Under the pieces are notes generated by a model, which worked only from the letters and a program-made list of their open reading frames with translations, made no database searches and had not been told where the DNA came from. Of a stretch of 64,000 bases of DNA, positions 13,220 to 20,219 are shown one piece after another; position 1 is the first letter of the stretch, and each line of letters opens with the position of its first letter. A program made the position numbers and the translations under genes. Where the stretch lies: NCBI RefSeq assembly GCF_003334255.1, contig NZ_QOWU01000022.1; one strand, written 5' to 3'. This DNA is from Escherichia coli. Lineage in GTDB: Bacteria; Pseudomonadota; Gammaproteobacteria; Enterobacterales; Enterobacteriaceae.

Positions 13220-14644
13220 TTAATGTTTAACCATGACGTGGCGGACGACGGTGTAATCCTCCAGCCCATAAAGTGACATATCCTTGCCGTAACCAGAAAG
13301 TTTCTGCCCACCGTGCGGCATTTCACTTACCAGCATGAAATGGGTATTGACCCAGGTACAACCATATTGCAGCCGTGCGCTGACGCGATGCGCCCTGCCC
13401 ACATCTTTAGTCCATACCGAAGATGCAAGTCCGTACTGGCTGTCATTCGCCCAGTTCACCACCTGTTCTTCGTTGTCGAAGAGCGTAACACTCACTACTG
13501 GACCAAATACCTCTTTTTGCACGATGGCATCGTCCTGTAATGCGCCAGCCAGCAGCGTCGGCGCATAGTAATAGCCATTACCCTTGCGCTTTTCACCGCC
13601 GGTGATCACTTTGATATGCCCTGTCGCTTTCGCCTCTTCTACCGCCTTGCTGACGCGTTCGAGATGCGCCAGCGAGCTTAAAGGTCCAAGCTCCGTAGAC
13701 TCGTCATCCGGCGCACCCGATTTTAACGTTGCCACCACAGCACCGAGTTTTTCCACCAGCGTATCGTAAATGCCTTTTTGCGCGTAGATCCGACAAGCCG
13801 CAGTACAATCCTGTCCGGCATTGTAATAGCCAAATGTACGTACACCTTCGACCACTGCTTCAATATCCGCATCATCAAAAACAATCACTGGCGCTTTGCC
13901 ACCAAGTTCCATATGAGTACGCTTAATGGAGGGCGCGGTATGGCTGATGATGTGCTCGCCGGTGGCGATAGAGCCCGTCAGCGACACCATCCGCACTTTG
14001 GGATGACCGGTCAGCGGATCCCCCACCGTTTTGCCTCTGCCAAACAGTACGTTAATCACGCCTGCCGGGAAGATATCTTTCGCCAGCTCTGCCAACTTCA
14101 ACGCGGTCAGCGGGGTAATTTCTGATGGTTTAAGCACTACGCAGTTCCCTGCCGCCAGCGCCGGAGCAAGTTTCCACGCGGCCATCATCAGCGGATAATT
14201 CCACGGTGCGATAGAAGCCACGACCCCCAACGGATCGCGACGGATCATCGAAGTATGACCTTCAAGATATTCACCTGCCGCCAGACCATTCAGACAGCGC
14301 GCCGCACCCGCGAAAAAGCGAAAAACATCGACAATCGCCGGGATTTCATCATTGAACGCACTATGCAGCGGTTTGCCACAATTACGGGACTCCAGTTCGG
14401 CAAAAACCTGACCATTTTCTTCGATAACATCAGCCAGTTTCAGCAGACATTCCGCACGCACTTTCGGCGTGGTTTGCCCCCATTCGGCAAATGCTGCATC
14501 TGCCGCGCGCACAGCAGCATCGACCTGCTCTGCGGATGCCTCGGCAATTTCCAGTAAAACGTCCCCCGTTGCCGGATTATAGACAGGCTGTTTTTCCCCT
14601 TCGCCGCTAACCAGTTCTCCGTTAATCAGTAACTTATGTTGCAT
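13220..14644 (-). CDS. patD: Gamma-aminobutyraldehyde dehydrogenase PatD (YdcW, 474 aa)
   Basis: ORF track; aldehyde dehydrogenase family with catalytic Cys region (GQDCTAA). Confidence 0.9.
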
Positions 14645-14665
14645 AGCATATTCCTGTATCAGTGG

Positions 14666-15460
14666 TTATTGACCATTGTCGCCTTCGCGGGTTAGCCACC
14701 AGGCCCCCAGGATCGGCAAGGTTGTTACCAACATAACCAGCAGTGCCACCACGTTAGTTACCGGTACATCACGCGGTCGCCCAAGCTGATTGAGCAACCA
14801 CAACGGTAACGTTCGTTCATGACCTGCCGTAAAGGTCGTAACGATGATTTCATCGAACGACAAGGCAAACGCCAGCATTCCTCCTGCCAGTAACGCCGAA
14901 CTGAGATTCGGCAACACTACGTAGCGGAAGGTTTGCCAGCCATTGGCCCCAAGATCCATTGACGCCTCAACCAGACTCCAGGAGGTGCGGCGAAAACGGG
15001 CGATGACATTGTTAAACACCACAACTACACAAAAAGTCGCATGACCGACCACGATGGTGAAAAATCCCGGCTCCAGATTGATGGTTTTAAAGGCGGTTAA
15101 TAACGCCAGACCAGTGACAATGCCCGGCAGCGCAATGGGCAGCAGCAGTAACAGCGAAATGGCGTTTTTGCCGAAAAAGTCTCGTCGCCACAGCGCGGCA
15201 GCTGCCAGCGTCCCTAACACCAGCGCAATTAATGTCGCCAGCGCCGCCACTTTAAGTGACAGTGTCACGGCATCAAGAATATCACTACGCTGTGCTGCCA
15301 CGCTAAACCAGCGCAGCGTCAGGCCCTGCGGTGGAAAACTAAACGCCGCATCTTCAGTGTTAAACGCATAGGCGGCGATTATCAGGATGGGAAAATGTAG
15401 GAAAACAACGCCGCCCCAGGCCGCCAGTTTGAGGAAAAACGGTGCGCGTTCAGAGTGCAT
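14666..15460 (-). CDS. ydcV: ABC transporter permease YdcV (264 aa)
   Basis: ORF track; polyamine-type ABC permease; operon with ydcSTU. Confidence 0.9.
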
Positions 15461-17422: not shown

Positions 17423-18568
17423 TTAGCGACCGCCCATAATGGCAATGTAATCCTGCGTCCAGCGACTGTAGGGAACAAACTTGCCCCCTTCTGCTATAGG
17501 CGTTTTCCAGAAGGCGATTTTGTCGAAATAGTTAAAACCGTTTGTTTCACAACCTTTTTCGCCTAATAACGGACTGGCTTTACACCCTTCCGGCACTACC
17601 GGTAACGAGCCAAACCAGGCCGCCACATCGCCCTGTACTTTTGGCGTTAATGACCAGTTCATCCATTTGTAGGCGCAAGCCGGATGTTTCGCTTCGCTAT
17701 GCAGCATGGTGGTATCAGCCCAACCGGTAACACCCTCCTTCGGGAAAACGGTAGCAACAGGCTGGCCTTCGGCTTTCAGGGCGTTGGCCTGATAGGGCCA
17801 TGCACTGGAAGCAACCACACCCTCGTTTTTGAAATCGCTCATTTGCACGGTAGTGTCATGCCAGTAGCGATGGATCAAACTATGTTGATCCCGCAGCACT
17901 TTCAGCACCGCCTGGTACTGTTCTTCGGTGAGTTGATACGGATCGCTGATGCCCAACTGCGGCTGAGTGGCTTTAACGAACAACGCAGCGTCCGCAATAT
18001 AGATCGGGCCATCATAAGCCTGAACGCGGCCTTTATTGCTCTTGCCGTCCGGCAGATTTTGCTCAACAAAAACCACTTGCCAGCTATCCGGCGGCGTCGG
18101 GAAGGTTTTAGTGTTGTACATCAGCAGATTCGGCCCCCACTGGTATGGTGTGCCGTAAACTTTGCCGCCAACATTGAACCAGTCGCCTTTAACCACGCGG
18201 GGATCGAGCGTTTTCCAGTTGGGGATCAATGCGGTATTAATCGGCTGCACGCGTTTACCCATAATCAGGCGCAGCGAGGCATCGCCGGATGCAGTAACCA
18301 GATCGTAACCCCCTTTGGTCATCAGACTGACCATTTCATCGGAAGTCGCGGCGGTTTTCACATTCACCGCGCAGCCTGTCTCTTTTTCGAATTGCGTTAC
18401 CCAGTCGTATTGTTTATCAGTTTGTCCGCGTTCGATATATCCCGGCCAGGCGATAATATCCAGTCGCCCTTCCGGTTTATCTAAATTGGTAGGCGGTTCG
18501 GCGGCGTGAGCGGTCATTATTGTCATGCTGAGCGCACACAGGCTGCTGCGGGCAAATGTCTTGCTCAT
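17423..18568 (-). CDS. ydcS: Periplasmic substrate-binding protein YdcS (381 aa)
   Basis: ORF track; signal peptide; spermidine/putrescine-binding-protein-like. Confidence 0.9.
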   Translation of the reverse strand: MSKTFARSSLCALSMTIMTAHAAEPPTNLDKPEGRLDIIAWPGYIERGQTDKQYDWVTQFEKETGCAVNVKTAATSDEMVSLMTKGGYDLVTASGDASLRLIMGKRVQPINTALIPNWKTLDPRVVKGDWFNVGGKVYGTPYQWGPNLLMYNTKTFPTPPDSWQVVFVEQNLPDGKSNKGRVQAYDGPIYIADAALFVKATQPQLGISDPYQLTEEQYQAVLKVLRDQHSLIHRYWHDTTVQMSDFKNEGVVASSAWPYQANALKAEGQPVATVFPKEGVTGWADTTMLHSEAKHPACAYKWMNWSLTPKVQGDVAAWFGSLPVVPEGCKASPLLGEKGCETNGFNYFDKIAFWKTPIAEGGKFVPYSRWTQDYIAIMGGR

Positions 18569-18812
18569 AAAGTCTTACTCCTGTCGTAATTAATTGTTCA
18601 GCCGCCGTGCCGTAAAAATATCTCCTTGTTTAACCATAGACGGCGGCTTGCAGGCACACCTTCGCCCCTGAGAAAATTTAATCAGGTTGTGAGCTACCGC
18701 GCATTATGCCGTCTGTAAGGTTATCTTCTGGAGTATAGACAAGGAGTTAGGAAATATGACTGCTATTCGAAATTCATATTACCCAATCTAAGAGGAATTA
18801 AATTAAACGCTA

Positions 18813-20219
18813 TTACAGCCGTTCTTGAATAAGTTTGCCTAATTGTTTTACCGCCTGTTCTTCACGTTCTCCCCACTGCCACGCGGTATTAAAACGAAAA
18901 AAACGTGACCAGTTTTCACCGGTAGAAAACATTTTACCCGGCGCAATACTGATATGATGCGTCAGTGCCGCCAGGCTTAATTCGCCGGCATCTAACGGCT
19001 CGGGGAGCTCCAGCCAGAGAAAATAACCGCTGTCATTATGATGAATTTTAACTTCCGCAGGCAGATAACGCAGCAGTGCCTGCCAGGCACGTTGTTTACG
19101 TTCCGCAAGCTGGCGACGCAGGCGACGAAGATGGGCGTCGTATCGGCGCGTGGAAAGGTAATCCACCAGCGCAAGCTGCATCGGTGAGCTGGTGGAAAGC
19201 GTACTCATCAACTGCAAGCGTTGAATTTTACGTGCATGTTTTCCGGCGGCGACCCAACCAATACGAAAACCAGGCACCAGACATTTCGAAAACGAAGAGC
19301 AATGCAAAACGCCATCGTGGCGATCCCACGCTTTCGCAGGCAGCGGTTTTTCCCGTCCAAAATAAAGTTCGCTGTAAACGTCATCTTCAATCAGCGTTAC
19401 GTTGTACTGATTGAGCAACGCCACCAGTTGTGCTTTTTTTTGCGGCGTTAAGGTAAATCCGAGTGGATTCTGGCTATTAGTCATCAGCCAGCACGCTTTC
19501 ACCGGATACTCCTGCAACGCCAGTTCCAACGCCTGAAGATCGATCCCTTCTTTAACATCCGTCGCCACCGATAACGCCTTCAGCCGTAGCCGCTCCAGCG
19601 CCTGCAACGCACCGTAGAAACAAGGATTCTCTACTATCACCCAATCGCCCGGTTCAGTTACCGCTTGCAAACTGAGGTTTAATGCCTCTAACGCCCCGGC
19701 AGTAATGACAATTTCATCAGGAGAAATGGTGATGCCCTGTAAGGCATAGCGACGAGCAATAGCCTGACGCAGTTCTGCGTTTCCTGGCGGTAAGTTTTCA
19801 ATCACGCTCATCGCCGTGGCGGTTTTGCTTACCTGCGCCAGCGAGCGGTTTAGTTGTTGTAGGGGGAAAAGTCGCGGGTCGGGAAAGGCCGAGGCAAACG
19901 GAACTACCGACGGATCGCGACTGGCCTGCAACATATCAAAAATATAAGTGTTGATATCGACTGCTTCATCTCGAGTGACTGGAATGACTGGCGCTTTCGG
20001 CATTTTTATTGCCTGTGGCGCAACGTAATAACCTGACTGCGGTCGTGCGATAATATATCCCTGACTTTCGAGCAACTGATAGGCATGGCTGACAGTCATA
20101 AAGCTCATGCCAGAAAGCGCCACCTGGTCACGCAACGAAGGCAAACGATCGCCGGGTTGCCAGATACCCGACGCAATCTGCTCGCGTAATTGTTCTGCAA
20201 GCTGCTGGTATTTTTTCAT
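18813..20219 (-). CDS. ydcR: MocR-family regulator YdcR (GntR-type HTH fused to aminotransferase-like domain, 468 aa)
   Basis: ORF track; N-terminal HTH, C-terminal fold-type I PLP domain. Confidence 0.85.
   Translation of the reverse strand: MKKYQQLAEQLREQIASGIWQPGDRLPSLRDQVALSGMSFMTVSHAYQLLESQGYIIARPQSGYYVAPQAIKMPKAPVIPVTRDEAVDINTYIFDMLQASRDPSVVPFASAFPDPRLFPLQQLNRSLAQVSKTATAMSVIENLPPGNAELRQAIARRYALQGITISPDEIVITAGALEALNLSLQAVTEPGDWVIVENPCFYGALQALERLRLKALSVATDVKEGIDLQALELALQEYPVKACWLMTNSQNPLGFTLTPQKKAQLVALLNQYNVTLIEDDVYSELYFGREKPLPAKAWDRHDGVLHCSSFSKCLVPGFRIGWVAAGKHARKIQRLQLMSTLSTSSPMQLALVDYLSTRRYDAHLRRLRRQLAERKQRAWQALLRYLPAEVKIHHNDSGYFLWLELPEPLDAGELSLAALTHHISIAPGKMFSTGENWSRFFRFNTAWQWGEREEQAVKQLGKLIQERL

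Follow-up and report, generated by a model that had tools for sequence, protein, structure and literature searches.

MocR-subfamily GntR regulators combine an N-terminal GntR winged helix with a C-terminal fold-type-I aminotransferase-like domain that carries a lysine binding pyridoxal 5'-phosphate (PLP), and they recognize short operator boxes set whole helical turns apart. GabR of Bacillus subtilis, a PLP-dependent protein with a helix-turn-helix (HTH) and an aminotransferase-like domain, acts at two boxes about three helical turns apart, where it represses its own gene and activates a divergent target. MpaR (PA4132) of Pseudomonas aeruginosa is a cyanide-responsive MocR activator of ccoN4 (PMC10790758), and it was placed in the same orthologous group, named 'YdcR', as the Escherichia coli protein of that name (PMC5320631). 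We analyzed a stretch of 64,000 nucleotides from E. coli (contig NZ_QOWU01000022.1; hereafter, the window) in which ydcR lies next to the operon ydcSTUV-patD, coding for a predicted polyamine-type ATP-binding cassette (ABC) importer and an aldehyde dehydrogenase.

With a probability of about 0.8, this locus consists of two neighboring, separately controlled units of the core genome, the operon and ydcR, YdcR being the neighbor of the operon and not its switch. In the first unit, the PotD/PotF-family importer YdcSTUV and PatD, encoded by translationally packed genes, would feed a diamine or amino-aldehyde into gamma-aminobutyric acid (GABA). It would be transcribed from its own sigma-S-type promoter in the spacer of 244 bp that separates ydcR from ydcS, through a conserved leader, and its expression would depend on RpoS, with a further dependence on Nac taken from the literature. 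In the second unit, the PLP-binding MocR-type regulator YdcR would bind ATTACAG-N27-CTGATAT over its own -35/-10 region, which probably leads to autorepression. In most Enterobacteriaceae the same operator would front a divergent cioA-cioB-DUF2474 operon as the ancestral partner of YdcR, in keeping with its place in the YdcR/MpaR orthologous group. The arrival of yncJ-hicAB in place of this oxidase operon in Escherichia would have left YdcR only its own promoter and distant sites, ylaC among them.

The operator was delineated by comparing the DNA upstream of ydcR among 80 loci from different Enterobacteriaceae species, whose YdcR orthologs are 80 to 97% identical and of which 79 were usable. 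An inverted repeat, ATAWCAG-N27-CTGWTAT, was present in 72 of these 79 species, ending 27 to 52 nt ahead of the ydcR start codon; the spacer was N27 in 69 of the 72 sites and N28 in the other 3. A position weight matrix (PWM) built from the 72 sites, which themselves score between 24.0 and 37.9, found one sole strong match in the window, namely, AATTACAGTTAACGAAAAGTTGTCATTTTTAACAACTGATATAGA at 20299-20255 on the minus strand (score 23.2), in the spacer between hicB and ydcR. Apart from the opposite-strand reading of this site, the next match, third in rank, scored 10.6 (31337-31379, TATAACAG..N27..CTGGCAT) and was judged a chance occurrence within an open reading frame (ORF) of 551 aa (29964-31619, minus strand). 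The boxes of the site are 34 bp apart from center to center, corresponding to whole helical turns, and its sequence is identical in K-12. It overlaps a -35-like TTGTCA (20280-20275) and abuts a -10-like TAGACT (20258-20253) of a promoter that is weak by consensus (9/12), and this position suggests that YdcR autoregulates ydcR, probably by repression. Published experiments agree with the location. In electrophoretic mobility shift assays (EMSA), YdcR at 50 nM and above shifted a fragment of 189 bp with the ydcR promoter (Pfanzelt et al. 2022, PMC9321722), and chromatin immunoprecipitation with exonuclease digestion (ChIP-exo) in K-12 gave a YdcR peak at 1509941-1509970 (Gao et al. 2021, PMC8464067 supplementary file 5). 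This peak, with the highest signal-to-noise ratio (12.3) among the values retrieved, maps to 20281-20252 of the window, directly on the operator.

A preliminary description of the locus had proposed YdcR as a plausible regulator of ydcSTUV-patD, with a MocR-type direct-repeat operator to be sought between ydcR and ydcS (18569-18812), and the analysis of this spacer does not support the proposal. A repeat search detected no direct repeats in the 244 nt, only short inverted ones, and the best PWM score was -6.9, ranking 74th among 127,910 positions, with about 0.23 such matches expected by chance. Nor was an operator found in the equivalent spacers of 76 related species (best score 2.7, median best score -6.3), where half-sites in any orientation numbered 131 as compared with 129.6 in shuffled sequences, and half-site pairs 33 to 35 nt apart numbered 3 as compared with 1.7. 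In the published EMSA, the 244-bp PRydcR-ydcS fragment was not shifted and served as the non-binding control (PMC9321722). The YdcR ChIP-exo peaks in K-12 are, by coordinate, ylaC (479257-479280), ynaE, ydcR and then ydcC at 1532540, with none between 1509970 and 1532540 (PMC8464067 supplement); the spacer (K-12 1511410-1511653) and the operon both fall within this peak-free interval. A comparative regulon reconstruction assigned only ylaC to YdcR of E. coli (b1439) and of Salmonella (Suvorova and Rodionov 2016, PMC5320631 supplement), and two more distant orthologs, of 55% and 49% identity, have neither ydcS nor patD as a neighbor. Two features that mark a dedicated regulator-operon pair, an operator in the promoter region of the target and co-occurrence beyond general synteny, were not observed.

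The operon appears to have control elements of its own. An alignment of ydcR-ydcS spacers from 18 genera revealed four conserved blocks, A to D (Table 1). The sigma-S -10 consensus is TG-N(0-2)-C-YATAMT. Block B would provide such an element for ydcS, with the predicted -10 hexamer at 18737-18732 in the conserved sequence TGTCTATACT; the -10 region reads TTGTCTATACT in the window and TTGACTATACT in K-12. Block A, upstream of it, is a candidate activator site. Together, blocks C and D (18599-18709) lie between the predicted start site, at about 18726-18724 and 7 nt downstream of TATACT, and the ribosome-binding site of ydcS, within a predicted leader of about 155 nt. This conserved part of the leader, on the minus strand, contains the stretches ..TCACAACCTGATnAAATTTC.. 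and ..GGAGATATTTTTACGGCACGGCTGCCGC.., near-invariant across the 18 genera, and could be an unassigned protein- or small-RNA-binding region that controls the operon. A search of 12500-21500 against Rfam (E <= 1) gave no match in the gene region or the ydcS leader, and RNAalifold applied to 62 ydcS leaders returned no riboswitch-like consensus fold, only a 4-bp hairpin of -6 kcal/mol. Two further candidates were discarded. A 9-bp stem, AGCCGCCGT/ACGGCGGCT (18648-18600), was peculiar to E. coli, and the remaining genera have a different small hairpin, CGGCAcggcTGCCG. Inspection by eye for a possible sigma-54 promoter in E. coli led to its rejection, as the GG/GC spacing in GGTGTGCCTGCAAGC is wrong and the segment is not conserved. 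The conserved, predicted sigma-S-type promoter fits the strong RpoS dependence reported for ydcS and ydcT (PMC2907692, PMC13339887), which reaches 125-fold for ydcS in strain EDL933. Control of ydcSTUVW by Nac is cited from Zimmer et al. 2000 in PMC6053447.

In 43 of 77 species, a hairpin followed by a T-run is located after ydcR and ahead of the conserved blocks. Citrobacter, Kluyvera, Leclercia and Silvania are among the genera with strong hairpins directly after ydcR (one lies at 11411-11445 of locus L008 in our numbering); energies range from -11 to -24 kcal/mol in the first three and others, and from -13 to -20 kcal/mol in Citrobacter. These terminator-like structures indicate that ydcR and the operon are separate transcription units. 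About a dozen species lack ydcSTUV, including Salmonella diarizonae, Citrobacter amalonaticus, Citrobacter sedlakii, Enterobacter cloacae, Enterobacter hormaechei and Superficieibacter (loci L023-L025, L027, L039, L057, L063, L065, L068, L074, L075 and L079); in these, ydcR is followed directly by patD, and remnants of the ydcS leader are kept. Loci L057, L075 and L079 have instead a sigma-54-like TGGCAC-N5-CTGCA ahead of patD.

Several points weigh against a strict separation of the two units and are considered here together with the alternatives to which they relate. The sigma-S -10 element and the start site of ydcS are predictions from the consensus, and the E. coli spacer, about 90 nt shorter than that of Citrobacter, contains no recognizable terminator, so that in E. 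coli transcripts that start at the YdcR-controlled promoter may, at a minor level, continue into the operon. A polar coupling specific to Escherichia, in which this read-through modulates a minor fraction of operon expression with no operator at ydcS, is the alternative that survives best, although we consider it improbable. It gains from the contrast between E. coli and the genera with hairpins, and from the description of the ydcR promoter as 'upstream of a putrescine transporter' (PMC9321722), but it has to contend with the operon's own conserved promoter and strong RpoS dependence, and with the weakness of the ydcR promoter; Rho-dependent termination, for its part, cannot be judged from sequence. 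A different point concerns ylaC. The K-12 ylaC upstream region has ATAACAG-type boxes but no N27 inverted pair, and since the PWM fails to reproduce the published site, YdcR may accept other box arrangements. In this region (L002 3311-3356), two direct boxes, CTGTTAT and CTGTTAC, lie 24 nt apart, with the published ylaC peak about 65 to 90 bp downstream.

The remaining points concern direct control, that is, that YdcR acts on the ydcS promoter through a degenerate or non-canonical operator in 18569-18812, sensing putrescine, 4-aminobutanal or GABA. In nearly every Enterobacteriaceae locus sampled, ydcR is followed on the same strand by ydcSTUV-patD or by patD; this order is near-universal, so synteny alone cannot separate the two units. 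Searches of the literature found no published transcript data for ydcS or patD in a ydcR deletion. The EMSA and ChIP-exo experiments were run without the true effector, and an effector-dependent second binding mode of YdcR may exist. Direct control is also favored by what is known of GabR and other MocR regulators, which detect amino compounds in the form of adducts with PLP (PMC5320631), and by a weak look-alike site, TTACAG-N27-CTGATTA at 18720, with the spacing of the real operator. This look-alike, however, is the match that scored -6.9, as compared with 23.2 for the real site, which is not significant, and it is kept neither in K-12 nor in other species: its right half is CTGATTA in the window and CTGAATA in K-12, a difference between strains of E. 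coli itself. Given also the empty spacers of 76 species, the negative EMSA on the whole spacer (PLP and putrescine having been tried solely on the ydcR promoter fragment), the lack of a ChIP-exo peak there, and the fact that the ortholog group regulates terminal oxidases and does not stand beside ydcS outside the family, we regard direct control as very unlikely.

The YdcR protein shows the domain arrangement of the subfamily. Its best NCBIfam matches are the MocR-like regulators PdxR, YczR, EhuR, MocR and GabR, all below cut-off, with models that align from residues 2 to 6 onward. For a protein 99% identical to it, the precomputed Pfam domains are PF00392 (GntR HTH) and PF00155 (aminotransferase), and Lys312 and Tyr282 of YdcR are found within SSFSK and DDVY motifs, respectively. 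Intact-protein mass spectrometry demonstrated that YdcR binds PLP (Pfanzelt et al. 2022, PMC9321722). YdcR thus resembles GabR in architecture and box distance, and the GabR logic of autorepression plus activation of a divergent target is that which we infer for ydcR and cioA in the relatives of E. coli. In contrast, YdcR scores 124 bits against the GabR model (cut-off 600), its boxes are inverted (ATAACAG/CTGATAT) whereas those of GabR are direct repeats, and GABA genes are absent from both its predicted and its measured regulon.

There are similarities with MpaR as well. The pocket residues are collinear at an offset of two (K312, Y282, F201 and F112 in YdcR; K314, Y284, F203 and F114 in MpaR), the motif required by MpaR, ATCTGAT, resembles the YdcR half-site CTGATAT, and each of the two proteins binds or acts at its own promoter and has a link to terminal oxidases. 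The proposed orthology rests on the published assignment and these collinear residues. MpaR, however, activates a cbb3 subunit gene and autoregulates positively, whereas the enterobacterial orthologs adjoin a bd-type cyanide-insensitive oxidase (CIO) and E. coli YdcR has no adjacent oxidase target; the cyanide response was shown for P. aeruginosa MpaR only (PMC10790758).

The link to oxidases is evident from the neighborhood of ydcR in other species. In most of the 80 loci, a cioA-like gene is divergent upstream of ydcR, as part of a bd-type oxidase operon, cioA/cioB/DUF2474. It codes for a 472-residue homolog of bd-oxidase subunit I, with CydA and AppC matches far below the NCBIfam cut-offs. 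The starts of cioA and ydcR are often only 140 to 170 bp apart, which places the operator within the shared divergent region, and loci in which cioA is further away have a second operator (score 24 to 34) ahead of cioA. The 55%-identical ortholog, from a metagenome, is likewise divergent from DUF2474, CydB-like and CydA-like genes, with ATAACAG boxes about 34 bp apart in the spacer, and next after the gene of the 49%-identical ortholog comes a FixG/NapH-like gene, an arrangement also present in the Pseudomonas and Vibrio regulogs of the literature. For P0122, P0126 and P0127, which are distant representatives, the genomic context was either short or not informative. The published regulons of the YdcR group comprise oxidase, napH or ylaC genes, with CydA/CydB-like genes in Klebsiella, Serratia, Proteus, Vibrio, Shewanella and others (PMC5320631 supplement). 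A conserved ORF for a 62-residue CxxC...CxxC zinc-ribbon protein lies between the cioA operator and ydcR in 26 loci of Enterobacter, Lelliottia, Leclercia and Silvania (L044, at 9730-9918, and 25 others), with no E. coli equivalent at this position. NCBIfam has no family for this protein or for YlaC.

Divergently adjacent terminal-oxidase genes carrying the operator are absent from the window. A search of 5,426 E. coli genomes detected no cioA-like DNA on the chromosomes; 28 plasmids, from 27 genomes, do carry a mobilized fragment of enterobacterial chromosome with cioA. In one of them, pEC213_1-OXA-181 (locus L091, NZ_CP061102.1 7504-18917), the fragment contains a U32-peptidase remnant, DUF2474, cydB, cioA and a divergent ydcR-like gene, the latter 86% identical to YdcR, with an operator scoring 34.1 between the divergent genes. 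On this plasmid, IS3, ISNCY and Tn3-family elements border the fragment, and a pentapeptide-repeat gene is close by. On the chromosome, the interval between rlhA and ydcR holds yncJ-hicAB, and this, together with the lack of chromosomal cioA, identifies YdcR as an ortholog whose neighboring target was lost. The hicB stop codon runs into the left half of the operator (20292-20300 in the window; near 9920-9960 in loci L003-L006), and Escherichia alone has a degenerate sequence in this half: ATTACAG in the window and ATTAAAG in locus L003, as compared with ATAACAG elsewhere. This suggests that yncJ-hicAB took the place of the ancestral cioAB-DUF2474 operon, with the junction exactly at the edge of the operator.

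These contexts bear on what YdcR senses. It is very unlikely that a product of the PatD pathway, GABA or 4-aminobutanal, is the PLP-reactive effector of YdcR, in which case the gene neighborhood would reflect supply of the signal and YdcR would act on targets elsewhere, such as ylaC or Salmonella srfN: YdcR does bind PLP, ydcR stays beside patD in the species without ydcSTUV, and Salmonella YdcR activates srfN, with ydcR induced inside host cells (PMC7400052), but no effect was described for the EMSA with PLP and putrescine (PMC9321722), the orthologous MpaR responds to cyanide (PMC10790758), and the conserved targets of the group, cyanide-insensitive oxidases, point to respiratory poisons rather than amines. 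We tentatively propose, at somewhat less than even odds, that YdcR of E. coli and Salmonella is a stranded regulator of the MpaR/CIO lineage, whose divergent cioAB-DUF2474 target was replaced in Escherichia by yncJ-hicAB with the junction at the left operator half-site. It would still be autoregulated, with distal sites at ylaC and, in Salmonella, srfN, and may sense a PLP-reactive respiratory poison such as cyanide, not polyamines or GABA; that it adjoins ydcSTUV-patD would have historical reasons. As a separate matter, and with the same reservation, the conserved ydcS leader of about 110 nt could hide post-transcriptional or repressor control. The proposal of a stranded regulator is mildly novel and was partly anticipated by the comparative study of 2016; the conserved leader is the other mildly novel thread.

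The gene layout (Table 1) is that of a known locus and operon, and nothing in our data alters knowledge of the operon itself. Over 7.5 kb, the sequence is 100% identical to that of several E. coli chromosomes whose annotation uses the same gene names, and it was found in 5,416 of 5,426 complete E. coli genomes. The window is collinear with K-12 b1439-b1444 (1510003-1517002), where ydcR (b1439) and ydcSTUV-patD (b1440-b1444) have the same order, spacing and operator; the two differ by strain-level substitutions only, including those in the -10 region and in the right half of the look-alike. The six genes are therefore genuine annotated genes and not chance ORFs. Much of the preliminary description was borne out in this respect: all six minus-strand ORFs are in the ORF list, the gene identities were confirmed by NCBIfam, annotation and the 100% identity to annotated chromosomes, and the tight packing of the five operon genes was verified (17 nt between ydcS and ydcT; 0 nt between ydcT and ydcU, which abut; an 11-nt overlap of ydcU with ydcV; 21 nt between ydcV and patD). 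Its view of YdcR as a GntR-HTH fused to an aminotransferase-like domain agrees with the two Pfam domains and the SSFSK lysine, and its statement that the regulator-effector pairing is not fully defined is correct as regards the effector of YdcR. The perfect hairpin between patD and yncL has no U-tract on either strand and was not called by the terminator scan; it is a probable transcript end of the patD/yncL region. Between yncJ and rlhA, at 21389-21428 (minus strand), a sub-threshold Rfam match to naRNA4 (30.9 bits as compared with a gathering score of 59.5; E 0.019) is probably a repetitive extragenic palindrome (REP)-type element.

Table 1. Positions in the window of the genes and of the observed or predicted control elements
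Feature	Position	Strand	Basis
YdcR operator, ATTACAG-N27-CTGATAT	ATTACAG 20298-20292; CTGATAT 20264-20258	-	PWM, footprint across species, ChIP-exo, EMSA
ydcR, MocR-subfamily GntR regulator	18813-20219	-	ORF, annotation, NCBIfam, Pfam
Block A, TAATATGAATTTCGAATAG (other genera CATAGGAAATnnGCATAG), upstream of the -10	18763-18781	-	Spacer alignment
Block B, CTAACTCCTTGTCTATACTCCAG, predicted sigma-S-type promoter of ydcS, TG-N1-C-TATACT	18728-18750	-	Near-invariant across 18 genera
Leader block C, ..TCACAACCTGATTAAATTTTC..	18670-18709	-	Spacer alignment
Leader block D, ..GGAGATATTTTTACGGCACGGC..	18599-18647	-	Spacer alignment
ydcS, periplasmic substrate-binding protein, first gene of the operon	17423-18568	-	NF041888 above cut-off, structure 6NLP
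ydcT, ABC ATPase, PotA-like	16392-17405	-	ORF, annotation, NCBIfam
ydcU, ABC permease, PotB-like	15450-16391	-	ORF, annotation, NCBIfam
ydcV, ABC permease, PotC-like	14666-15460	-	ORF, annotation, NCBIfam best match PotC
patD (ydcW/prr), gamma-aminobutyraldehyde dehydrogenase, last gene of the operon	13220-14644	-	ORF, annotation, TIGR03374
14-bp perfect hairpin, CGTACTGTCAGAGA / TCTCTGACAGTACG, 7-nt loop, between convergent patD and yncL	13146-13180		Read from sequence

At the protein level, the dehydrogenase is assigned most firmly: PatD scores 1035.6 bits against the TIGR03374 aminobutyraldehyde dehydrogenase model (cut-off 909.3), and its residues 2-473 align to model positions 1-472 of 472, which makes it a member of this equivalog. 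YdcS exceeds the cut-off of its own equivalog model, NF041888 (814.5 bits; cut-off 725), and is the protein of Protein Data Bank entry 6NLP, with SpuE, PotF and SpuD as the next solved relatives (E 1.6e-19 to 1e-14). The transporter shares the four-component architecture of the polyamine ABC importers PotFGHI and PotABCD (TC 3.A.1.11) and of the P. aeruginosa SpuD/SpuE systems, its components being homologous to PotA, PotB, PotC and PotD(F), as in a PotD/PotF-type importer. All Pot scores, however, are far under the equivalog cut-offs: YdcT matches PotA best (359 bits; cut-off 482), YdcV matches PotC (146 bits; cut-off 326), YdcU matches PotB below its cut-off, and YdcS scores 62.7 bits against PotF (cut-off 636). 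YdcSTUV is thus a paralogous system distinct from PotABCD and PotFGHI, from which it differs also in that ydcSTUV is joined in one operon with an aldehyde dehydrogenase gene. Transport of putrescine is, in the literature examined, an annotation and not a demonstrated fact. YdcS has also been reported as a polyhydroxybutyrate synthase (K-12 annotation), and ydcS and ydcV have been reported to take part in DNA uptake (PMC7494812).

At this locus, a MocR regulator beside an amine-handling operon looks like its switch, but three independent lines of evidence, namely, operator footprinting in 72 species and the EMSA and ChIP-exo data from the literature, indicate that it is not, which is a warning to genome annotation against guilt by association. 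Studies of putrescine or GABA catabolism, or of ydcS-dependent phenotypes, should accordingly look to RpoS, Nac and the conserved leader, and not to YdcR. For the assignment of a function to YdcR, including its role in Salmonella virulence, respiratory poisons and the bd-type oxidase promoters of the relatives would be the pertinent candidates.

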